Below are positions 2,833 to 54,965 of a stretch of 64,000 bases of DNA, piece after piece. Where the stretch lies: NCBI GenBank assembly GCA_020161405.1, contig JAIUOD010000003.1, positions 217,392 through 281,391 on the forward strand, written 5' to 3'. The position numbers were made by a program, and so were the translations under genes. Positions within the stretch are counted from its first letter, which is position 1. Each line of letters starts with the position of its first letter. The notes under the pieces were generated by a model. The model saw only the letters and a program-made list of their open reading frames with translations, had not been told where the DNA came from and ran no database searches. This DNA comes from Pseudomonadota bacterium. Lineage in GTDB: Bacteria > Pseudomonadota > Alphaproteobacteria > Caulobacterales > Aquidulcibacteraceae.

Positions 2833-4206
2833 ATGAAAAAAATCAAAATTTCACCTTTTATTTTGGCAATTGCTGCGACATTTGCATTATCTTCATGCGC
2901 AAGTGTTCGTGAAAAAATCCCCTTCATGCGCGATAAAGATGAAGGTGGCTCAAAAGCGCCAAAAGATGGTCGTATTGCAGTTTTGGGCATTGATAATGAA
3001 ATTAAAGTTGACGAAGTAACAAAAGATTTAAAAGTTACAATTCCTGATGCTGTTGATGTTTCTGATTGGCATCTTTCGGGCGGAAATGGCGCGAATGACA
3101 TTCAAAATCTTAAAGGCGATGGTAAAATTGGTCTTTTATGGACACGTAAAATTGGCGCTTCCTCTACAGCAGCAAATGGTATTATTGCGCCGCCAATTAT
3201 TGATAATAACGTAATTTATACAATCGATGGTAATTTCAGTGTTCATGCAAGTGATATAACAAATGGCAAAAGCATATGGTCACGTCATTTTGCAAAATCT
3301 GGTAAAAAAGGTTGGTTCTCTCATTCATTCCAAGCAATGGGTGGCGGTCTTGCGTTTAATAATGGTAAATTATTTTTAGCGTCTGGCTTTGGTGAAATAA
3401 TTGCACTTGATGCAAAGAATGGGCAGACAATTTGGACTTTGGGCACTAATTCACCTGTCCATTCTGCACCAATTGTTTCTGGCGGAAAAGTTTATGCGGT
3501 TTCTGTTGATAGTGTTTTATGGGCAGTAGATGAAAATACAGGCGAAAGCGCTTGGACACAAAGTTCGCTTCCTGAAAGTGCGCGCGTTCTTTCAAGCCCA
3601 TCATCAGCCATTAGTGGTGAAACAATTGTAACACCTTTCGCGTCTGGCGAAATTATTGCAAGCCTTGTTTCAAATGGCCGCAAACTTTGGAGTGAGGGTT
3701 TAACACGTGCAGGTTCTGGCACTTCTTTAAGTTCAATTAATGATATTGCAGGTCGCCCAGTTATTCATTCAGGCGTTGTATATGCAGGTTCGCAATCAGG
3801 TATTGTTGCCGCAATTGATTTGCGTACTGGCGTTAAAATTTGGGATAAAGAAATTCCAACAATTCAAACCCCTTGGATAGCAGGTGATTTTATTTTCGTA
3901 GTTTCTACAGATTCAAAAGTATATTGTATGAAACGTGAAGATGGCGCAGTTGTTTGGATTAAACAACTTGATGCTTATAAAAACGAAAAGAAACGTAAAA
4001 ACCGCATCATGTGGACAGGTCCAGTAATCATTGCTGGCAATTTAGTTCTTGGCTCTACTGAGGGGACAATTTTGGAATTAAATCCGCAAGATGGTAATAT
4101 TATAAACAGCTTTAAAACTAGAGCTAACTTCACAATTACACCTGCTTACAAAGATGGTGTTTTATATTATATGTCAACCGATGGCGTTTTAGTTGCGGTA
4201 AAATAG
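2833..4206 (+). CDS. bamB: Outer-membrane assembly lipoprotein BamB (PQQ-like beta-propeller)
   Basis: Lipobox FALSSC; repeated A-x-D-x-x-x-G-x-x-x-W propeller blades; yfgM-bamB-der synteny. ATG at 2833 preferred to GTG at 2824. Confidence 0.85.
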   Translation: MKKIKISPFILAIAATFALSSCASVREKIPFMRDKDEGGSKAPKDGRIAVLGIDNEIKVDEVTKDLKVTIPDAVDVSDWHLSGGNGANDIQNLKGDGKIGLLWTRKIGASSTAANGIIAPPIIDNNVIYTIDGNFSVHASDITNGKSIWSRHFAKSGKKGWFSHSFQAMGGGLAFNNGKLFLASGFGEIIALDAKNGQTIWTLGTNSPVHSAPIVSGGKVYAVSVDSVLWAVDENTGESAWTQSSLPESARVLSSPSSAISGETIVTPFASGEIIASLVSNGRKLWSEGLTRAGSGTSLSSINDIAGRPVIHSGVVYAGSQSGIVAAIDLRTGVKIWDKEIPTIQTPWIAGDFIFVVSTDSKVYCMKREDGAVVWIKQLDAYKNEKKRKNRIMWTGPVIIAGNLVLGSTEGTILELNPQDGNIINSFKTRANFTITPAYKDGVLYYMSTDGVLVAVK

Positions 4207-4215
4207 GCTTATTAA

Positions 4216-5742
4216 ATGGCAATTAAAACTGCAATCGTTGGAAGACCAAATGTAGGTAAATCTACTTTATTTAATCGCCTTGCGGGCAGGAAGCTTGCGA
4301 TTGTCGATGACATGCCAGGTGTAACGCGCGACAGGCGTGAAGCAAAAGGTCGTCTTGGCGATTTAGATTTATTATTAATAGATACCGCAGGCTTTGAAGA
4401 AATTGATGATGAAAGCCTTGAAGCGCGTATGCGCGAACAAACGATTGCGGCAGTTGAAGAAGCTGAAATATGCTTATTTGTTGTTGATGCAAGGTCTGGT
4501 GTTACGCCATTGGATGAAACCTTTGCAACAATTTTAAGAAAATCAACCAAACCTGTTATCCTTCTTGCAAATAAAGCTGAGGGAAAAGCCACTGAAAATG
4601 GCGTTTTAGAGGCCTATTCACTTGGTTTTGGGGAGCCGATTGGAATTTCTGCCGAACATGGTGAAGGGATGGGGGATGTCTATTCCGAATTCCTAAAAAT
4701 CCTTGGTGAGCGCGCAGCACCTGATTTGGGTTTTGGTGAAGATGAAGATAACCCGCCATTAAGACTTGCGATAATTGGGCGCCCTAATGCGGGCAAATCC
4801 ACTTTAATCAATGCTCTTATTGGCGAAGATAGGCTTATTACAGGCGCAGAAGCGGGGATTACACGCGATTCAATCGGTATTGATTGGGAAGATAATGGAA
4901 CACGTATTCGCCTTGTTGATACTGCGGGTATGCGCAAAAAATCGCGTGTTCAAGAAAAATTAGAGGTTTTATCGGTTGCCGATACAATTCGTGCAATTCG
5001 TTTTGCTGAAATCTGCTTTGTTGTTATGGGTGCGGATGAGGCGTTTGAAAAACAAGATTTACAAATTGCGGATCTTGTTGCCCGTGAAGGCCGTGGCCTT
5101 GTTTATGTAATTACAAAATGGGATGCGGTTGAAAATCCTGAAGCGCGAATGAAGGAATTGGTGGCAAAATCTGAAAAAGCATTGCCAGAACTTCGTGGTG
5201 CGCCAATGATTGTTGTTTCTTCTTTGACTGGTATGGGGCTTGAACGATTAATCCCTGCGGCAAAAGAAGTCCATGAAGATTGGAATGCGCGCATTAAAAC
5301 CCGCGACTTAAATGATTGGCTGCGTGAGGCAATTGCCAAACAACCGCCACCTGCGGTCGAAGGTAAGCGCATTAAGCCAAAATATATTTCGCAAATTAAA
5401 GCGCGCCCGCCAACTTTTGTTTTATTGGCAAATCGTGCAGCAGCTTTACCTGAAACTTATGTTCGTTATTTGACGAATGGTATTCGCGTGGCATTTGATA
5501 TGCCTGCTGTGCCTTTACGTTTCTTTGTGCGTGCGCCGAAAAATCCATTTGTTGATGGTGTAGAAGAAAAGCCAAAATATCAAAGCAACACAAAAGCGCC
5601 AATGATTCCAAAACTGGAGAAACCAAAGCAAGAGCGAACAAGGAAGATTTCAAATCCTAAAAAAGCACTTGCGGCGAAAAAATTGGCGACCGGTAAGAAT
5701 AAAAAATATTCAAATAATCCAGGCAAAAGACCTTTCAAATAA
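4216..5742 (+). CDS. der: Ribosome biogenesis GTPase Der (EngA)
   Basis: Two G domains (GRPNVGKS/DTAG/NKAE and GRPNAGKS/DTAG/TKWD) plus a KH-like C-terminal domain. Confidence 0.98.
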   Translation: MAIKTAIVGRPNVGKSTLFNRLAGRKLAIVDDMPGVTRDRREAKGRLGDLDLLLIDTAGFEEIDDESLEARMREQTIAAVEEAEICLFVVDARSGVTPLDETFATILRKSTKPVILLANKAEGKATENGVLEAYSLGFGEPIGISAEHGEGMGDVYSEFLKILGERAAPDLGFGEDEDNPPLRLAIIGRPNAGKSTLINALIGEDRLITGAEAGITRDSIGIDWEDNGTRIRLVDTAGMRKKSRVQEKLEVLSVADTIRAIRFAEICFVVMGADEAFEKQDLQIADLVAREGRGLVYVITKWDAVENPEARMKELVAKSEKALPELRGAPMIVVSSLTGMGLERLIPAAKEVHEDWNARIKTRDLNDWLREAIAKQPPPAVEGKRIKPKYISQIKARPPTFVLLANRAAALPETYVRYLTNGIRVAFDMPAVPLRFFVRAPKNPFVDGVEEKPKYQSNTKAPMIPKLEKPKQERTRKISNPKKALAAKKLATGKNKKYSNNPGKRPFK

Positions 5743-5764
5743 AATTATTATTCTGCTTTTGGTT

Positions 5765-6502
5765 TTAAAGTCCAAGTGCTTTAAAATGTTCTGTTTCGCG
5801 GAAGCTTATGATTTTGCCATTTAGGGCTTTATCGCGTGTGGGTGACATTAATTCCAAAATCATTGTTCCCAAATCTGCTGGTTTTGGTAGGTTCGAAAAA
5901 TCTTCACCAGGGAATGCTTTTCGGCGCATACCAGTTGCAACACCGCCAGGGTCAAGGATTGTGGCAACTATATTAGTGCTGGCGTTTTCCAATGCCCATG
6001 CCTGAACCATTGCGTTTACACCTGCTTTTGATGCACCATAAATCCCCCAATTTGCGCGTGGATTAGTGCCAACCGATGAGGTCAAAAAAATTGCACGCCC
6101 ATTTGGTGCCATTTGCAATAAAGGCGACATTGAAGCGATAAGGCGATAGGTTGCAACAAGGTTCACATCAATAATCCCTTGCGCTTCACGTGGTGTTACG
6201 TGTGCAATTGGGGTTAAATCGCCCAAAGTTGCGCCACAATGGATAAGACCATCAAGCTTTTTATAACGTTCAAATAAAGCGCCGCCAAGCCTATCAATAC
6301 CTGCGCCATCTTTTAAATCAAGCGGAACAATTGTTGCATTCTCTCCTGTTAATTTGACGATTTCATCGTCTAATTCTTCAAGTTTTTCTTGGCGTCTTGC
6401 GGTTGCAATAACATGATAGCCAGCGCGCGCCATAATCAAACATGCAGCACGTCCGATACCTTGGGTTGCACCAGTTACTAAAACAATTGGTTTATCGCTC
6501 AT
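5765..6502 (-). CDS. Short-chain dehydrogenase/reductase (YciK-like)
   Basis: TGATQGIG, YGASK catalytic motif; customary position downstream of purF. Confidence 0.9.
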   Translation of the reverse strand: MSDKPIVLVTGATQGIGRAACLIMARAGYHVIATARRQEKLEELDDEIVKLTGENATIVPLDLKDGAGIDRLGGALFERYKKLDGLIHCGATLGDLTPIAHVTPREAQGIIDVNLVATYRLIASMSPLLQMAPNGRAIFLTSSVGTNPRANWGIYGASKAGVNAMVQAWALENASTNIVATILDPGGVATGMRRKAFPGEDFSNLPKPADLGTMILELMSPTRDKALNGKIISFRETEHFKALGL

Positions 6503-7993
6503 TTATGCCTCTACAAGGAAGGATAATTGCGTCATTTTATCTGATTGCGAATTATCTTGGTCTACAAGGCGGGTTGGATATTCGCCAGTGAAACAATGAT
6601 CCGTGAATTGTGGGTTTGTATTGTTACGTGCTTCTTCACCCAATGCCCAATAAAGCCCTTCAACTGATAAGAAACCAAGGGAATCAACCCCAAGCTCCTT
6701 AGTCATCTCCTCTAGGCTCATGCGGGCAGCCATTAATGAATCTCTATCTGGCATATCAATGCCATAAAAATCAGGCCATTCAATACGTGGGCTTGCAGAT
6801 CTAAAATGAACTTCGGTTGCGCCTGCTTCACGAACTAATTGAACAATTTTCTTGGATGTAGTGCCGCGAACAATTGAATCATCAACCAAAATAACGCGTT
6901 TCCCAGCAAGCACGGCCTTATTGCCCGCATGCTTACGTTTTACACCTAATGATCTTGTAAGTTGGGTTGGTTCAATGAATGTGCGCCCAACATAATGATT
7001 GCGAATAATTCCTAAATCATAAGGAATGCCAGAGCTTTCGGCATATCCAAGTGCCGCAGGGACGCCAGAATCAGGAACGGGAACAACAATATCAGCCTCA
7101 ACGGCAGTATCTTTTGCAAGGCGCATACCCATGCGTTTACGAACGTCATAAACCGATTTGCCGCCAAGAATTGAATCAGGGCGCGCAAAATATACAAATT
7201 CAAAAGCGCATGGTCTTGCTTTGCGTTTGCCAAACGGGAAATGGCTTTCAATCTTGCCGCCTGAAATTACAACGATTTCACCGGCTTCAACTTCACGAAT
7301 ATATTCGGCACCAATCATATCAAGGGCACAGGTTTCAGATGCAAGTACATAAGAACCTTTTAAATCACCCAAAACTAAAGGACGAATACCATTTGGGTCA
7401 CGTGCACCAATAAGTTTGTTTTTGGTTAGGCATACAAGTGCATAAGCACCCTCAACTTGAGTAAGTGCATCAATTAATCTTGCTACAACTTTTGGCGCTT
7501 TTGAGCGGGCAATTAATTGTAAAAAAACCTCGGAATCCGAGGTTGATTGGAAGATAGCGCCAGATTGTACACAATGTTCACGTAGCGCACGTGCATTGGT
7601 TAAATTGCCATTATGGGCGATTGCAATTCCACCATGAGATAGGTCGGCAAAAAGTGGCTGCACATTTCTTAAAATCGTTCCGCCTTGGGTTGCGTAGCGG
7701 ACATGGCCGATTGCATTGCATCCAGGTAGGCGTTGTGGCAAATCTGCCTGTGTGAAATGATCACCAACAAGGCCAAGGTGGCGCTCATTATAAAATAATT
7801 GCCCGTCAAAAGTTGCGATGCCACAACCCTCTTGACCACGATGTTGTAAGGCATGAAGCCCAAGTGCAGTGATTACAGCGGCTTCTTCATTTCCTGCAAT
7901 GCCAAAAACGCCGCATTCTTCGCGTAATTTATCGGCATCGGGGTCGAACCAATCAATGTCGTCATGGCTTACAATATTGGCATTATTTGTCAT
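6503..7993 (-). CDS. purF: Amidophosphoribosyltransferase
   Basis: Propeptide then EECGVFG, LQHRGQE, GHVRY, PRPP loop VDDSIVRGTT. Likely ATG at 7993; the 8089 start overlaps cvpA. Confidence 0.98.
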   Translation of the reverse strand: MTNNANIVSHDDIDWFDPDADKLREECGVFGIAGNEEAAVITALGLHALQHRGQEGCGIATFDGQLFYNERHLGLVGDHFTQADLPQRLPGCNAIGHVRYATQGGTILRNVQPLFADLSHGGIAIAHNGNLTNARALREHCVQSGAIFQSTSDSEVFLQLIARSKAPKVVARLIDALTQVEGAYALVCLTKNKLIGARDPNGIRPLVLGDLKGSYVLASETCALDMIGAEYIREVEAGEIVVISGGKIESHFPFGKRKARPCAFEFVYFARPDSILGGKSVYDVRKRMGMRLAKDTAVEADIVVPVPDSGVPAALGYAESSGIPYDLGIIRNHYVGRTFIEPTQLTRSLGVKRKHAGNKAVLAGKRVILVDDSIVRGTTSKKIVQLVREAGATEVHFRSASPRIEWPDFYGIDMPDRDSLMAARMSLEEMTKELGVDSLGFLSVEGLYWALGEEARNNTNPQFTDHCFTGEYPTRLVDQDNSQSDKMTQLSFLVEA

Positions 7994-47671: not shown

Positions 47672-49453
47672 ATGAGTTTATATCGTACCCACACTTGTGC
47701 CCAATTAAGAAAAGAAAACATTGGTGAAACTGTAAAAATCGCAGGTTGGATTCATCGTCGCCGTGACCATGGCGGTGTTGCATTCATCGATTTGCGTGAC
47801 CATTATGGCATTACACAGGTTGTATGTGGCCCAACAAATCCACATTTCGAAAAACTAACCCATTTACGTGCTGAATCAGTAATTTCAATCGAGGGTGAGG
47901 TTATTGCCCGTGAAGCTGGTACTGAAAATTCAGAATTGGGAACTGGTGAAATTGAATTACGCGTTGTGAATTTTGAAGTGCTTTCAGAAGTTACCCAAGA
48001 TTTGCCAGTGCCTATTTTTGGTGAATTGGAATATCCAGAAGATGTTCGTTTGCGTTATCGCTTCTTGGACTTACGCCGTGAGACTTTGCATAAAAATATT
48101 ATGCTTCGTTCGAATATTATTTCATCATTGCGCCGCCGCATGAATGAAGCGGGCTTTTTTGAGTTTCAAACACCAATTTTGACAGCATCTTCACCAGAAG
48201 GCGCGCGTGACTTTTTGGTTCCGTCGCGTTTGCACCCTGGTAAATTCTATGCACTGCCGCAAGCGCCACAACAATTTAAGCAATTGATTATGGTTGCAGG
48301 TTTTGACCGCTATTTCCAAATAGCCCCATGTTTCCGCGATGAAGATGCGCGCGCTGACCGTTCACCTGGTGAATTCTATCAACTTGATATTGAAATGTCC
48401 TTTGTATCTCAAGATGATGTTTTCGCAGCTATTGAACCTGTATTATCGGGCGTATTTAGCGAATTCTCAACTTGGGAAGCAGATGCAGCGCCATTTGTTC
48501 GTATTCCATATAAAGAAGCAATGCTTAAATATGGTTCGGACAAACCTGATTTGCGTAATCCATTGATTATTTCTGATGTTACAGAAGTGTTTAAACGCGA
48601 TGACGTTACTTTCAATGCATTTAAAGGCACAATTGCAAATGGCGGTGTTGTTCGCGCCATTCCTGCGCCAAATACTGCTGATAAGCCACGTTCATTCTTT
48701 GACAAATTGAATGAATGGGCGCGCAAAGATATGCAAGCCGCTGGCCTTGGTTATATCACATTTGCAGCGGGTGAAGCAAAAGGGCCAATTGCAAAATTCT
48801 TTACGCCAGAAGCTCTAGAATTGCTTAAATCACTTTCTGGTGTTGGCGAGAATGATACTGTATTCTTTGCCTGTGACACTGAAGATAAAGCTGCAAAACT
48901 TGCAGGCCAAGCACGTAATCGTATTGGTGATGAATTAGGTATATGTGAGAAGAATGTTTATCGCTTCTGCTGGATTGTGGATTTCCCAATGTTTGAATGG
49001 AATGAAGATGAGAAGAAGGTTGATTTCTCTCATAACCCATTCTCTATGCCGCAAGGTGGTATGGATGCGTTGCTTAACCAAGATCCACTTACTATCAATG
49101 CATATCAATATGACATCGTATGTAATGGTGTTGAATTATCATCTGGTGCAATTCGTAACCATCGCCCTGAAATCATGCTTAAGGCATTTGAAATCGCGGG
49201 CTATGGTGCCGAAGTGGTCGAAGAAAAATTCGGCGGCATGTTAAATGCATTCCGTTATGGCGCACCGCCGCATGGTGGCTTGGCACCTGGTGTTGATCGT
49301 ATGGTTATGCTTTTGGCAGATACGCCAAACATCCGCGAAGTAACAATGTTCCCAATGAACCAAAACGCACAAGATTTGATGATGCAAGCGCCATCAAATG
49401 TAAGTAATAAACAATTACGTGAATTAAGTTTACGGGTTGCGGTACAGGATTAG
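47672..49453 (+). CDS. aspS: Aspartate--tRNA(Asp/Asn) ligase
   Basis: YRTHTC, RRDHGG (non-discriminating-type His), [16 protein letters not shown]. Confidence 0.98.
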
Positions 49454-49483
49454 AAAAAAGGCCACCGATTGGTGGCCTTTTTT
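49454..49483. terminator. Bidirectional intrinsic terminator
   Basis: aaaaaaggccacc-gatt-ggtggcctttttt. Confidence 0.92.
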
Positions 49484-49515
49484 ATATTTATCTCGTAGTA
49501 TCTATTTTTCTTGCA

Positions 49516-50277
49516 TTATCTTTTCTTGCAGGGCGGAACGCTTAAACCATCGGGAAGGCGGGTTTTATCATCGCCACATGCGCCATCTAATTGGCTTCTA
49601 TTTAGGCCAATAGAGCCAGATAAATCGGCGCCAGATAGATTAGCGCCAGTGAAATCTACTTGGCTAAAGCGCGTACGATTAGCTTTTACACCGCGCATAT
49701 TGGCATTAGAAAAATCAGCACCATTTATCTCAGCAGAATCAAAACGTGCGCCCATTAGATTAGAGCCATTAAACTCAGTAGAGCGCGCGCGTGATGCGGT
49801 AAAATTAGAATAGGCAAGATTGGCACCAATAAATTCGGCATTATCCAAAATAGCACCAGTGAAATTGCCATGTGACAATGTTGCCCCGGATGCTTCAGTA
49901 TTATTCAAAGTTGCGCCAACAAAATTACCGTTGAAAATATGTGCAGATTCTAATGAAGCAAATCCAAGATCGGCGCGGCTAAAATCAGAATTTGAAAAAT
50001 TGCCGCCATCTAATTCAGCACGTCGCATTTGTGCGCCCGCAAATTGTGCGCCAACAAAATTACCATTATTAAGCCTTGCACCACCAAGATTACGCCCCGC
50101 AAGATCACAATTTATGCAAGAGCCAGAGAAACCGCGTGAAAAAGTAACCGAATTTGGGCGACCAACTTTACCCCAAGCGCTAACACCATCACCCCAATTA
50201 AAGGCCATAACATCAGTTGATATCATTGCCCCAAGGATAGTAATCGCCTGCAATAAATAATGGTTCAATTTGGACAT
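49516..50277 (-). CDS. Exported pentapeptide-repeat protein (long paralog)
   Basis: Signal peptide, CINC, about 30 A(D/N)(L/F)xx repeats, cap GACGDDKTRLPDGLSVPPC. Confidence 0.93.
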   Translation of the reverse strand: MSKLNHYLLQAITILGAMISTDVMAFNWGDGVSAWGKVGRPNSVTFSRGFSGSCINCDLAGRNLGGARLNNGNFVGAQFAGAQMRRAELDGGNFSNSDFSRADLGFASLESAHIFNGNFVGATLNNTEASGATLSHGNFTGAILDNAEFIGANLAYSNFTASRARSTEFNGSNLMGARFDSAEINGADFSNANMRGVKANRTRFSQVDFTGANLSGADLSGSIGLNRSQLDGACGDDKTRLPDGLSVPPCKKR

Positions 50278-50346
50278 TCTAAATTATAGCCATAATTTAA
50301 ATATTTTACCAATTAAATGACTGTTAGAATTGGTAATTTAACTGAA

Positions 50347-50841
50347 TTATTGCACACAAGAACGGACATGAAGACCGCGTGGTAACTCTGTTGCCTCATC
50401 ACCGCATGCGCCATTTAATTGTGCTTGTGTAAGGCCACGTGCGCGCCCTAATTCAGCACCAGAAATATTGGCGCCATTTAGGTTTGCGCGTGCAAAATTT
50501 GCACCGCTGAAATATGCACCAACAAGTGAAGCGCGTTCTAAATTAGCGCGTGAAAAATTAGCGCCAGTAGCGCGAACGCCATATAGATTAGCGATTGATA
50601 AATCTACACCAGCAAGATTAGAATAATCAAGTGTTGCAAGTGATAAATCAGATTGGCGAAGACGAGCACCTGAAAAGTTTTTACGCGATAAATCTTGGTT
50701 CATCAAAGCCGCTTGAAATAGATTGCAGCCTGCACAAGATTTTTTACCCGCCATAACGCCATCAATTTGTGATTGATTTTGTGCAAAAGCAGGAAAAGCG
50801 ATTGTGCTTAGAGCTAAAGTGATTGCAACCAATTGTTTCAT
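50347..50841 (-). CDS. Exported pentapeptide-repeat protein (short paralog)
   Basis: Signal peptide AFA, CAGC, repeats, cap GACGDEATELPRGLHVRSC. Confidence 0.93.
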   Translation of the reverse strand: MKQLVAITLALSTIAFPAFAQNQSQIDGVMAGKKSCAGCNLFQAALMNQDLSRKNFSGARLRQSDLSLATLDYSNLAGVDLSIANLYGVRATGANFSRANLERASLVGAYFSGANFARANLNGANISGAELGRARGLTQAQLNGACGDEATELPRGLHVRSCVQ

Positions 50842-50953
50842 TTTCGGACACTCCGGTAATAAATGCTTTAAATGCCATTATCTATGCATTAAATATGCCG
50901 TTCAATTTGAGTAGCTAACTAGCGTTAATACAAAGTGAATTTATCAATTTCAC

Positions 50954-53479
50954 CTAATTATTACTTTGGCCTTTGATGTTGGTAATATCATTTATTGTTT
51001 TTATTTGACCACAAGCATCACATATAGTGCCATCAAGTGTTTTCTTAACCGTAAAGTGTCCGCAAGTATCACATGGATCACCTTGATAATTAACTTCTTC
51101 TTTTACCAAGCGACCAGGTTCGACCAGTTTATCAATTGAAACTTCACGTTTTCTTCCAAATTGTGGCTGAATTAAATTGTTTGGAATATTCCCACGTGAA
51201 AAACCCTTTGAGATAAATTTTGAGGCATCAAAATCTTCTTCATTGTCTTTTTCATTATATGTAAAATCAGTTGGCGAAGGATCAGATGTTAAATCATATC
51301 TATCAAGGTATGAAACTGCAAGTTCACGGAAAAGGTAGTCCAGTATAGAACTTGCATTTTTAATTTTGTCATTTCCGTCAACACGCCCTGATGGTTCAAA
51401 TTTTGTGCCTATAAAGGCATCAACATATTCATCAAGTGGTACGCCATATTGCAAACCAATTGATATTGCGATTGCAAAATTATTCATAAGGCTTCTAAAG
51501 GCGGCACCTTCTTTATGCATGTCGATAAAGATTTCACCTAATTCGCCATTTTCAAATTCGCCAGTATGTAAATATACTTTGTGACCGGCGACTTTTGCTT
51601 TTTGGATATAGCCTTTTCGCCTTTGCGGAAGTTTCTTTCTATTTACTGGTGTTTCAATTGTTCTTTCGACAATTTTCTCAACTTCTATTTTTTCGATGCG
51701 TGGCTCTGGTTCGTAATTGCGATATTGATAGTGTTCTTCGCTTATATCGCTAATACCTTTGCCAGAGTTTTTAATATCAATACCAGGCCATTTTTTTTCT
51801 TTGGCAATTTCAATATATTTTGCCAAATTTTTTGCGCCATTTAAGTCGTTTGATGTTATGATGTTATATGCAGAAATATTATTAATATATGGCGCTATAG
51901 CATTGTAAATTATACCTAAATCGTTATTATAAGTTTGGGTTAAAATTGGTGATAAATTATTTTTTTTGCTATCGCCGAAAACCCATTTATTTGCCTCTTG
52001 AATTTGGAAATCATCAAATCCAATTTCTTTTAAAAGGCAAAATTCAGGGGCAATAATTCGATTTATATCATTTCCAGTTAGGGTTTGGCAAAAATCTATT
52101 CCCAAAACCCAAGGATTGATTACGTCATATAAATCACGTTTTTTTGGTATCTCATCGGCAATCGCAGCGATTGCATCATTATCAAAGCCAAGCACACTTA
52201 AGTTATTATAGTTTATAGTAGGGCAATTTGACAGGCTTTGACGACCTAAAAGATTATCATATAATTCCTCAAGATCTTGACCAATGAGTTCGCAAGAGTT
52301 GATAACGCAATTTCTGATGCCAATTCTGGTTTCTGTTGCATTAATTGAGGTTTCAATTCGTAAATTTTCAACAGGCTTTATTCCTAAAGAATCTGTCCCT
52401 AAAATTGCGCAAATTATTTCATCTTCTTCCGTTTGCAGATATGTTTTTTTATCTAATTGAAGGCCATGAATTGTATTTTTTAGGTCAGATAGAATTAGTT
52501 CGATACTATTGGCATCATATGTTTTACCAATTGACATGATAGCCGCGCCAATACCAGTAATCCCAATTGAGATTTCATCGCCTTCAGTTTTTATAGCCTC
52601 ATTGCATGCAAAAACATCAAGTGCAATTTGGCTATAGTCCAAGTTGCCATTGGTAACATATTCTTGAAGATTTAAACAAAAGCTATTTTCAATAATTTTT
52701 GAGTTAAAAAATATTTGTGTTTGGGCGTCTATCAAATCGCATAGGAATTTATCTTCAAGTGAATTTTTTATAGCTTCAAATTGAACCTTCGGTCTTTTTG
52801 TATCATTTTCAACGAAACTAATTGGGAAATTAGTTTGTTGTTGCTGCATAGAATTTTCAATTGCGCGCTTAATAATCGCAGCTGGAACGCCGCGGCCAAA
52901 TGATTTAGCGATTACTTTTGCAAGTGCAGGGTTAGATTTTGGGTCAAATTTACCTTCACCCATTGCCCGACCAATTGCATCATCAATGTCTTCAATTGCT
53001 TCATTGATAATATTGTTTCCTGTGTATGAACAAGCAATTCGATATTGGCGTGCAATTTCATCATGAATTGCAAATTTTGCTTTTTCTGCATCCTTGATTG
53101 GCAAATCATTATTAAATGATGATGGGCCAAGAATTTTATTAATGAAAACCCGACGGCGTAATGTTGCAACAAGTATAATATTATTTATTTTATTATTATA
53201 ATTTGCATCAAAATCGGGCGATAAATAATTGTTGAAAATATTATGAAGATGTATCGATAAATCTTCATTGTCATTCATTTTAAGCGCGAAAAAGGCCTGT
53301 TTTACGCAATCAAGTGGCCAATTTATTGGGGCAAAACATGTGATTAGATTGCCAAAATCGTCAACAGTAATTTCACGCTTTGCCTGTGCCGGTAAATCTG
53401 AAGTGACATCAAATGCTTTGTGCGAAATCATTTGTTTTAAATCATCAGCGCGCAGTGGATTTATACTATTTTGCGTCAT
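50954..53479 (-). CDS. Degenerate class II ribonucleotide reductase (NrdJ)-like protein with conserved C-terminal domain
   Basis: C-terminal block [10 protein letters not shown]...[34 protein letters not shown]...[14 protein letters not shown] and CxxC..CxxC are NrdJ-like; divergent from NDUFA12 as nrdJ usually is; no NPCxE or APTG motif. Confidence 0.8.
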
Positions 53480-53708
53480 GTTTTTACCAAATTCGAATCA
53501 ATTATTAATTTGCTCATAATTCGGGTAAAACTACAATCTTTTTCAGCTTTTTGTTTTTCCTATTTTGCGCAAATAATACTAATTTATTAAGGCTTTTGGG
53601 GTGATTTGTTATTTTAAATTGCACAAAATTAAATTTTGTGTGGCTTTTAAGATTGAGTTTATTTTGATATGCTCTAATAACTTCTAAAATTAAGATTTAA
53701 GGTGTTTA

Positions 53709-54095
53709 ATGCTTAAGAAAATTTTCACATGGTGGAATGGTGCTACAATTGGTGCATTGTTTGATATTGGTCGTCGTGCAAAAAAAGTTGGCGAAGACGA
53801 ATATGGCAATTCATATTTTGAAGAACCACATGCAACTGTGGAAGGGCGTAAACGCCGTTATGTGATTTATAAAGGTTATGCAGAACCATCAAAAATCCCT
53901 GTGGATTGGCATGGTTGGATGCATTACACTTTCGATGAGCCGCCAACCAAAACGCCTTTCAAACTTAAAAGCTGGGAATTGCCACATAGACCAAATCTAA
54001 CTGGCACTTTGTTTGCTTATAAACCTGATAATAGTTTGGCGAATGCTGGCAAAAAACTCGAAGAAAAGAATTCTTACGAATCTTGGAGGCCATAA
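53709..54095 (+). CDS. NADH:ubiquinone oxidoreductase NDUFA12 (17.2 kDa) subunit family
   Basis: FTWWNG, VGEDEYGNSY, RRYVIY, WHGWMH, PNLTGT. Confidence 0.95.
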   Translation: MLKKIFTWWNGATIGALFDIGRRAKKVGEDEYGNSYFEEPHATVEGRKRRYVIYKGYAEPSKIPVDWHGWMHYTFDEPPTKTPFKLKSWELPHRPNLTGTLFAYKPDNSLANAGKKLEEKNSYESWRP

Positions 54096-54965
54096 ATGGC
54101 AGCCAAAAAAGTGCTTAAATGGATTATTCCAAGTGCGCTAATTATTTCTATTGTTGGCTTTGTATCAATCCGATATTCTTATGCACAAAAAGCAGGAAAT
54201 GACGCGCAGCCCAATATTCCGCTTGCACCTGAAAATAATAAAAAAAGCGAGCCGCCAAATACAGGTGTTGACCCTGAATTAGTTCAGGTTAACGAACCAG
54301 ATAGCGTTGATCTTGACCCGTCATTGGCAAATGCGAATGATGATAATAAAACAAAAACAAAAATTGACCCTGATAATGTTAATGAATTAAAGCAAGCATT
54401 TGGTGGTGATGATAAGAAATCTGAAAATTCAGGTCTCGTAATGCCGCATTTAGTTGGCGCAAATATTCCAACAATTCCGGTTAATTTACTTTTCCCACAA
54501 GGCCAAACGCAGCAGGTTGCTAATACTAAAATTGAAGAATTATCAGGAACAAGTGTTCTTATGCTTGGAATTGATCGTTCAACTGGTCAGTCACTAAAAT
54601 TTAGGATTCCTGTTGGTTCTGCGGTAAAATATCAAAATATAAATATCGCTGTTAGCGCGTGTTATAAATCGCGCCCTGATGCTTTACCTGAGTCATGGGC
54701 TTATGTTGATGTTGTTGATATGGGCGAACCACCTTTGCCACAAGTGGCGGTTCTTGCACAAAGAAACCGCGCTAAAATGCGCGAGGCTGAAGGACCGCAT
54801 CGTTTGCGCAAGGGTTGGATTATTGCCTCTAGTCCTTATGTAACTGCAATTGATCACCCAATATATAATATTTCCCTTCTTGCTTGCGAAGGCGGGCAGA
54901 CTGTGGCGCCTGTTACAACTACTGATTCAGTAAAGCCAGACAATAAGGACCAGAACAAAGGTTAG
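54096..54965 (+). CDS. DUF2155 domain protein
   Basis: C-terminal GIDR.TG, AC, P E.WAY, GW..ASSP....DHP.Y..SL..C; low-complexity N-terminal linker after a TM/signal segment. Confidence 0.8.
   Translation: MAAKKVLKWIIPSALIISIVGFVSIRYSYAQKAGNDAQPNIPLAPENNKKSEPPNTGVDPELVQVNEPDSVDLDPSLANANDDNKTKTKIDPDNVNELKQAFGGDDKKSENSGLVMPHLVGANIPTIPVNLLFPQGQTQQVANTKIEELSGTSVLMLGIDRSTGQSLKFRIPVGSAVKYQNINIAVSACYKSRPDALPESWAYVDVVDMGEPPLPQVAVLAQRNRAKMREAEGPHRLRKGWIIASSPYVTAIDHPIYNISLLACEGGQTVAPVTTTDSVKPDNKDQNKG

Follow-up and report, generated by a model that had tools for sequence, protein, structure and literature searches.

A probable catalytically dead descendant of the class II ribonucleotide reductase NrdJ, kept under purifying selection in Caulobacterales

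The 64,000-nucleotide stretch of contig JAIUOD010000003.1 analysed here (positions 217,392 to 281,391; hereafter the window) comes from an alphaproteobacterium of the family Aquidulcibacteraceae, order Caulobacterales. At 50954-53479, on its minus strand, it carries an uninterrupted 841-amino-acid open reading frame (ORF) that descends from NrdJ, the vitamin B12-dependent class II ribonucleotide reductase (RNR). Judged by its sequence, everything required for ribonucleotide reduction is gone from the encoded protein, which we call dead NrdJ. The catalytic residues are lost, yet the gene is transcribed and under strong selection, so the protein should have a non-enzymatic job, and we are highly confident that it is a functional non-enzyme. 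The dead form is an old, order-wide state, found in most of Caulobacterales, and not a peculiarity of this genome. New here is that the C-terminal IscU-like domain is equally conserved in the dead proteins and in live enzymes.

We aligned dead NrdJ with 24 other degenerate homologs and seven intact NrdJ proteins of 1209-1240 residues. The finger loop with the NPCxE motif, which supplies the thiyl-radical Cys, the Asn and the Glu, is deleted in 25 of 25 dead forms and reads SNPCSE in all seven intact enzymes; NPCxE occurs nowhere in the 841-residue ORF. The short forms also lack a block of ~230 residues in the first half of the barrel that bears the first redox Cys (PHACFIQS). In RNRs the specificity loops sit between this Cys and the helical insert, the region that is deleted here. 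The position of the second redox Cys (TACNL) is occupied by other residues in all other dead forms aligned, and APTGT and the terminal GCS are missing from the short forms as well; in dead NrdJ, APTGT is replaced by EDEII, and the internal Cys of the tail redox pair is gone. No Cys is conserved among the dead forms in these alignments except four putative zinc ligands near the C terminus. Across 100 ORFs from this locus, the long enzymes combine NPCxE with the terminal GCS, motifs that are never seen in the Caulobacterales forms of 745-1089 residues; APTG accompanies them with the exception of a stray APTG in two Brevundimonas forms. The joint loss of catalytic core and electron shuttle is strong internal evidence that ribonucleotide reduction is gone. 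An initial annotation of this DNA, made from its letters and predicted translations, had noted the continuous frame and the absence of NPCxE, APTGT and the terminal GCS, and had proposed that catalysis was lost; the comparison of dead with intact forms upholds all of this.

The same annotation listed eroded NrdJ landmarks upstream of the C-terminal domain. These do prove to be NrdJ segments in the right order: a 19-residue one aligns with DPKRNSALK..IPDTSIKRVI of true NrdJ, an 11-residue one with LGLGFANLGGLLM, LGIKP with TGVEP, and a 21-residue segment with the insert at residues 727-827 of the Rhodobacter sphaeroides NrdJ structure (Protein Data Bank (PDB) entry 7b9p). The Cys in SFCLNL, near the position of the TACNL Cys, is by comparison no conserved relic; it is idiosyncratic to this protein, and the 78%-identical ortholog reads NNVTIN.

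Profile searches place the protein outside the known reductases. Against PRK07562, the alphaproteobacterial NrdJ equivalog, it scores 309.6 bits, in four stretches, where the cutoff is 1737, and therefore does not qualify as an RNR; the other NrdJ equivalog models are likewise below cutoff (PRK06556, 142.5 against 859; PRK08665, 19 against 961), and neither PF02867 nor PF08471 matches. The one Pfam match above its cutoff is TSCPD (PF12637) at aa 630-721, with 39.4 bits against a gathering cutoff of 22.8; there is also a sub-threshold stretch resembling TACO1/YebC_N at aa 169-209. The sole solved relative found by sequence is 7b9p, which phmmer matches with an E-value of 6.3e-12 for the whole chain and 2.9e-11 for the stretch that aligns, aa 403-503 against 7b9p residues 727-827 only. 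We presume that this insert may be the dimer-stabilising ‘HUG’ domain of the paper describing 7b9p.

An AlphaFold2 model built on a 67-sequence alignment predicts that dead NrdJ folds as an RNR-like half barrel. Its predicted local distance difference test score (pLDDT) is ~90 over aa 10-575 and ~80 over the IscU-like domain; the linkers are disordered, and the strands that remain are, in the model, those of the barrel's second half. The best Foldseek match in the PDB is 7b9p (E 1.7e-13, template-modelling score 0.47), with Thermotoga maritima NrdJ and R1 proteins of class I next, so that the structural comparison suggested by the initial annotation returns an RNR-like fold. Profiles, alignment, model and selection divide the gene as follows (all on the minus strand; omega is dN/dS).
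50954..53479, minus: putative catalytically dead NrdJ descendant (pseudo-NrdJ), 841 aa; ORF, Pfam, PRK07562, alignment, omega.
53090..53479, minus: aa 1-130, vestige of the class II N-terminal region, with the APxxWS motif kept and PF08471 undetectable; alignment, omega 0.12-0.23, pLDDT ~90.
52700..53089, minus: aa 131-260, helical insert with a TACO1/YebC_N-like motif (FDPKSNPAL..., aa 169-209), also present in intact NrdJ; omega 0.04-0.09.
52280..52699, minus: aa 261-400, remnant second-half barrel strands (CLNL, ISIGITG, the former APTGT strand), without finger loop and without active-site residues in alignment and model; omega 0.21-0.22.
51965..52279, minus: aa 401-505, helical insert homologous to 7b9p 727-827; phmmer, seven positions conserved in dead and live forms, omega 0.06-0.075.
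51710..51964, minus: aa 506-590, what is left of the last two barrel strands (AYNII, GIDIKN), then the start of a disordered linker; alignment, model.
51290..51640, minus: aa 614-730, IscU-like domain without Cys (TSCPD in Pfam), showing the strongest conservation in the protein; PF12637, omega 0.012-0.022.
50990..51079, minus: aa 801-830, zinc ribbon with C803, C806, C820 and C823, with G817 and I829 in place of the redox pair and no terminal GCS; alignment, Loderer 2017 (PMC5704485).

The YebC-like motif, DPxxNPAL..A...G.P...I.RAI (52853-52975), matches the N-terminal domain of TACO1/YebC with an E-value of 1.8e-5, below the Pfam cutoff, and recurs in intact NrdJ (aa 336-367 of L113 and aa 338-370 of L116). 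To go by the motif, its presence in long NrdJ could reflect convergence or an ancient domain insertion.

Every part of dead NrdJ is under purifying selection. By the Nei-Gojobori method, against two orthologs with 85% and 78% amino-acid identity (dS 0.8-1.4), omega is 0.10-0.12 for the whole protein and 0.012-0.022 for the IscU-like domain, and outside that domain it stays at or below 0.25 everywhere, including the insert matching 7b9p 727-827, the YebC-like helical insert and the barrel remnant, with the values listed above. Calculated by domain, as had been suggested, omega thus lies far below 1 throughout, with the strongest constraint in the IscU-like domain. The barrel had been described as shrunken and decayed. 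It is shrunken and has lost catalysis, but with an omega of ~0.2 and a pLDDT of ~90 it is not simply decaying.

A site-by-site comparison of 37 dead with 30 live sequences resolves the constraint on the tail. In the IscU-like domain (aa 591-740), the two groups share 75 conserved positions, and none is conserved in the live group only. In the barrel remnant (aa 261-400) no position is conserved in both, and 62 are live-only. The zinc ribbon (aa 801-841) has five positions conserved in both, the four Cys and one Gly, and 12 live-only ones that include both redox Cys. Constraint on the IscU-like domain is therefore unchanged by the loss of catalysis, which argues for a catalysis-independent role of the domain. 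Over the C-terminal part, 70 columns are invariant across 62 sequences. The region from 51290 to 51640, read at the outset as an NrdJ C-terminal domain, is this IscU-like/TSCPD domain. Its TSCPD motif reads TSILD and there is no Cys anywhere in aa 591-740, as is also the case in intact long NrdJ; its invariant residues include H633, D653, H655 and E657.

The CDTC...CDAC pattern seen downstream of that domain corresponds to C803, C806, C820 and C823, which are invariant in 67 sequences. The NrdJd enzyme of Stackebrandtia nassauensis has six conserved Cys in its tail, of which Cys920, Cys923, Cys936 and Cys939 were proposed as zinc ligands, with less zinc in three of the four single mutants, and Cys933 and Cys945 as the pair returning the active site to its reduced state (Loderer 2017, PMC5704485). 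The equivalents of this redox-shuttle pair are G817 and I829 here; the pair is gone in all dead forms and kept in all intact ones. Exactly these two Cys have disappeared while the four zinc Cys stay, which disfavours the role of redox sensor that the initial annotation had entertained. The S. nassauensis protein also forms tetramers and hexamers that depend on the tail, and no thioredoxin or glutaredoxin partner was found for it (Loderer 2017, PMC5704485). The IscU-like domain and zinc finger have been described from predicted structures, with no role reported and oligomerisation suggested, and the cluster-ligand/TSCPD Cys of IscU are missing from most class II IscU-like domains (Burnim 2022, PMC9669993).

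The gene is expressed. In four wastewater or activated-sludge metatranscriptomes, RNA contigs span 49491 to 53485 or 53492, with a depth over dead nrdJ similar to that of neighbouring housekeeping genes. Coverage has a gap in the intergenic region, 53493-53693, and resumes at 53694-53708, at the start of the divergent NDUFA12 gene; because this stretch is uncovered, the contigs represent transcripts and not contaminating DNA. A promoter-like TTTACC-17-AATAAT (53529-53501) agrees with the RNA 5' end, and a hairpin (49454-49483) with the 3' end; the transcript also spans two downstream pentapeptide-repeat genes. The mRNA leader (53480-53492) is just 6-13 nt long and has no Shine-Dalgarno sequence, which makes the transcript nearly leaderless. 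Scanning 49000-54500 against Rfam produced no match, hence there is no B12 riboswitch at dead nrdJ. The features of this transcription unit outside the coding sequence of dead nrdJ are these.
53485..53529, minus: promoter-like TTTACC-17-AATAAT (53529-53501) and RNA 5' ends at 53485-53492; RNA contigs, motif.
50347..50841, minus: co-transcribed downstream gene for a 164-aa pentapeptide-repeat protein, probably with a signal peptide; RNA contig 49491-53485, synteny, Pfam.
49516..50277, minus: co-transcribed downstream gene for a 253-aa pentapeptide-repeat-like protein; RNA contigs, synteny.
49454..49483, no strand assigned: bidirectional terminator-like hairpin at the 3' end of the operon, shared with the convergent aspS; hairpin, RNA contig ends at 49447 and 49491.
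Pentapeptide-repeat proteins of this kind (164 and 253 aa at 49516-50841, minus strand), with probable signal peptides, follow dead and intact nrdJ genes alike across Caulobacterales.

The gene order accC-aat-DUF2155-NDUFA12, then divergently nrdJ and the pentapeptide genes (and in many loci aspS), is common to the dead forms and to the intact NrdJ proteins of 1224-1240 residues in sister families. Dead nrdJ is therefore the positional ortholog of nrdJ, as the initial annotation had it. Elsewhere in the same genome, class I nrdA and nrdB lie on another contig (C5; dead nrdJ is on C4), and profile searches found no other TSCPD or PF08471 protein. With catalysis lost, deoxyribonucleotides must come from this class I NrdAB. 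The genome uses B12, having one cobalamin riboswitch and three proteins with B12-binding domains, so the loss of NrdJ catalysis is not simply a loss of B12 metabolism. A second RNR and B12 genes had been named as things to look for; class I nrdAB and B12 use are both present.

The distribution was examined in 251 genomes of the order, whose families include that of this genome (f1), a Hyphomonadaceae-like family (f2) and Caulobacteraceae (f3). A homolog is present in 237 of them. The listed frames are free of stops, with lengths of 745-1100 aa in f1, f2, f3 and most of a further family, f5, and of 1190-1360 aa in family f6 and in some few genera of f5. PF08471 is detected in 71 genomes, in long forms only and never in f1, and NrdB in 248. 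Dead forms occur in Brevundimonas, Caulobacter, Phenylobacterium, Hyphomonas, Henriciella, Maricaulis and Marinicauda, among others. In a 95-sequence tree a single branch separates dead from intact forms (Shimodaira-Hasegawa-like approximate likelihood-ratio support 99), and the dead subtree tracks the families. Given the long dead branches, catalysis may have been lost once or a few times independently.

Some members of the family stand apart. G177, of the Hyphomonadaceae-like family, has both a dead 807-aa form and an intact 1275-aa NrdJ (G177:C18:25615-27501 and G177:C4:95910-96260), and in the 1.7-Mb genome G250 (G250:C1:873840-876890) the dead form is still 1258 aa long, without NPCxE, APTG or the redox tail Cys; the G177 and G250 entries carry the sequence labels L125 and L126. 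Read together, the two suggest a decay series in which residues were lost first and length later. Genus g38, with ~1000-aa forms like those of Maricaulis, keeps a vestigial PF08471 signal. A 394-aa homolog in G007 that looks truncated simply runs into the end of its contig.

What could the job of dead NrdJ be? As a whole, the explanation we lean towards, at somewhat better than even odds, is that it is a vertically inherited, same-locus descendant of NrdJd that is dead as an enzyme and acts as a scaffold or adaptor. Taken by itself, the scaffold or adaptor mechanism is tentative and falls short of an even chance. Dead NrdJ would be a zinc-containing, self-associating, non-enzymatic protein that has retained the accessory modules of its ancestor, namely the YebC-like helical insert, the insert matching 7b9p 727-827, the Cys-free IscU-like domain and the structural four-Cys zinc ribbon. 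Its working end would be the IscU-like domain plus the zinc ribbon. The IscU-like domain most probably has one job, independent of catalysis, that is the same in dead proteins as in live ones, and that job would be what selection preserves; candidates are oligomerisation or the docking of a partner, possibly the physiological reductant system of NrdJd. It is possible, although we would not bet on it, that in long class II RNRs the Cys-free IscU-like domain serves the cell in an important way that has nothing to do with ribonucleotide reduction, for example by nucleating an oligomeric assembly or binding a conserved partner, and that most Caulobacterales, C. crescentus among them, keep a gutted NrdJ only as its carrier.

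Several observations weigh against this explanation. The match of the tail domain to the IscU fold is not significant alone: a Foldseek search with a model of the tail only found nothing significant in the PDB, with weak recurring IscU/SufU matches (E about 0.4), and by sequence the 241-aa tail gave chance matches only in the PDB (S100-A4, E 0.01). The gene is missing from 14 of the 251 genomes, nearly all of one f5 genus and three of the genus that contains Brevundimonas, and is therefore dispensable in some lineages. Two fragmented metagenome-assembled genomes of the same genus as ours have frameshifts, G003 (G003:C23:5340-7767, L127) and G004 (G004:C24:2324-4847, L128), the latter with ~45 aa duplicated at the frameshift junction; these may be assembly errors or real pseudogenisation in some species. 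The conserved neighbourhood offers no evident interaction partner, since the pentapeptide-repeat genes also follow intact nrdJ. Finally, the remaining half barrel may retain some binding of adenosylcobalamin (AdoCbl) or nucleotides.

Among other roles, dead NrdJ might regulate or assist deoxyribonucleotide synthesis as an accessory subunit, by binding NrdA/NrdB or the reductant system or by sensing nucleotides. Class I RNR co-occurs with it (NrdB in 248 of 251 genomes), the tail of the ancestral RNR is thought to contact the electron donor, translation of the Caulobacter crescentus homolog comes within a few-fold of that of NrdB, and pseudoenzymes often regulate active relatives. We consider this unlikely, however, as the region of the first redox Cys, the site of the RNR specificity loops, is deleted, dead nrdJ is unlinked to nrdAB (C4 and C5), and it has no convincing NrdR box upstream whereas nrdA has one, although this last is a weak test in an AT-rich genome. 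We also know of no interaction between a class I and a class II RNR. A ligand sensor or re-purposed enzyme, in which AdoCbl or some other small molecule is bound by the half barrel, or a metal or cluster by the IscU-like domain, would suit a B12-using genome, a barrel remnant that is selected and predicted to be well folded, and the invariant H633, D653, H655 and E657. Nevertheless, aa 261-400 have no conserved positions in common with the live enzymes, which makes an inherited cofactor pocket unlikely; the cluster-ligand Cys of IscU are gone (TSILD for TSCPD) and were already gone in live long NrdJ; and there is no riboswitch or other RNA element at the gene. We rate this role as improbable, more so than that of a regulator.

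The remaining readings fare worse. A slowly decaying pseudogene or selfish relic, its frame open by chance or through polar effects on the downstream genes, would account for a very divergent, shrunken sequence, for the two frameshifts and for the loss of the gene in 14 genomes. It is very hard to reconcile with an omega of 0.10 at dS 0.8-1.4, stop-free frames of 745-1100 aa in long-diverged families, 70 invariant C-terminal columns and transcription in four metatranscriptomes, and we give it very little credence. The initial annotation had likewise argued that this is no plain pseudogene, and on omega, transcripts and intact frames across the sampled Caulobacterales it was right. That dead NrdJ is still an RNR with an unconventional active site is the least credible of all: databases do call its relatives ‘ribonucleotide reductase’ and papers on C. 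crescentus list CCNA_01966 as NrdJ, but the finger loop, thiyl Cys, redox pair, first half barrel and shuttle Cys are all missing, and the four zinc ligands are the only conserved Cys.

The closest known system is NrdJd itself (PRK07562; R. sphaeroides NrdJ, PDB 7b9p and 7b9q), with which dead NrdJ shares its locus, ancestry, the remnant of the N-terminal motif, both helical inserts, the Cys-free IscU-like domain and the four-Cys zinc ribbon, with 50-61% identity over the C-terminal part and 7b9p as best structural match. It differs in being ~350-400 aa shorter and in lacking the first half barrel, NPCxE, the active-site redox Cys, APTGT, the tail redox pair and the terminal GCS. The Cys-rich C-terminal domain (CRD) of S. 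nassauensis NrdJd has the same alpha+beta IscU-like domain followed by a zinc finger with four proposed zinc Cys, and its reported roles include oligomerisation; in dead NrdJ the equivalents of Cys933 and Cys945 are replaced, the electron-transfer role is gone, and the tail sits on a dead body (PMC5704485, PMC9669993). Stand-alone or split TSCPD proteins (PF12637; NrdJb of the NrdJa+b pair) likewise have a TSCPD-family domain above the Pfam cutoff that is separable from catalysis. The domain of dead NrdJ, however, is not stand-alone and reads TSILD without the eponymous Cys, and NrdJb works with an active NrdJa, while this genome has no active NrdJ. Like pseudoenzymes in general, dead NrdJ is an expressed enzyme homolog that has lost its catalytic residues and is under purifying selection; in the searchable literature we found no published case of this type for RNR catalytic subunits.

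Much of this bears on C. crescentus. CCNA_01966 (CC1889) is annotated there as "vitamin B12-dependent ribonucleotide reductase" (PMC5869019), is shown as NrdJ in a scheme of B12 pathways (PMC6538847), and is tallied among RNR genes in a preprint. The Caulobacter vibrioides control genome has a TSCPD match, no PF08471 and a score below the PRK07562 cutoff; all sampled Caulobacteraceae have dead forms only; and complete ~4.1-Mb genomes of the presumed Caulobacter genus have frames of 922-937 aa near 2.12 Mb, CCNA_01966 being at 2.11 Mb. CCNA_01966 is thus very probably of the dead type. Its ribosome footprints amount to ~1000-1200 units, compared with 3700-6700 for NrdB. In databases such proteins appear as "ribonucleotide reductase", as "ribonucleoside-diphosphate reductase alpha chain" or as "TSCPD domain-containing protein", and we found no description of dead NrdJ in Caulobacterales in the openly searchable literature, which leaves aside subscription literature and the curation notes of RNRdb. 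The names need correcting, because metabolic models and inferences of B12 dependency that treat these proteins as RNRs would be wrong here; Caulobacterales with the dead form would depend on class I NrdAB alone, and the Caulobacter ‘NrdJ’ would not be a B12 enzyme. The role of the IscU-like domain and zinc finger, and the physiological reductant of class II enzymes, are open questions in the RNR field (Loderer 2017; Burnim 2022). Dead NrdJ would be a natural separation-of-function mutant for the class II RNR tail, and the question can be tested in C. crescentus, a genetically tractable model organism.

The regulatory DNA around the locus and around class I nrdA offers a few minor observations. 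Within-genus alignment of the regions upstream of dead nrdJ showed no conserved element past the closest relatives, and the nearest thing to an NrdR box in this AT-rich region, where the test is weak, is an off-spacing palindrome. A perfect 8+8 palindrome (53622-53640), CACAAAAT-TTA-ATTTTGTG, sits between the two divergent genes, ~70 nt upstream of where NDUFA12 starts; it is partly kept in the 78%-identical ortholog only, and its spacing is unlike that of an NrdR box. An NrdR-box-like sequence, CCACTATATCTTGTGG (C5:906725-906740), is found 125 nt upstream of class I nrdA, and an NrdR homolog with 43% identity to Escherichia coli NrdR is encoded at C4:194311-194736, 23 kb upstream of the window.

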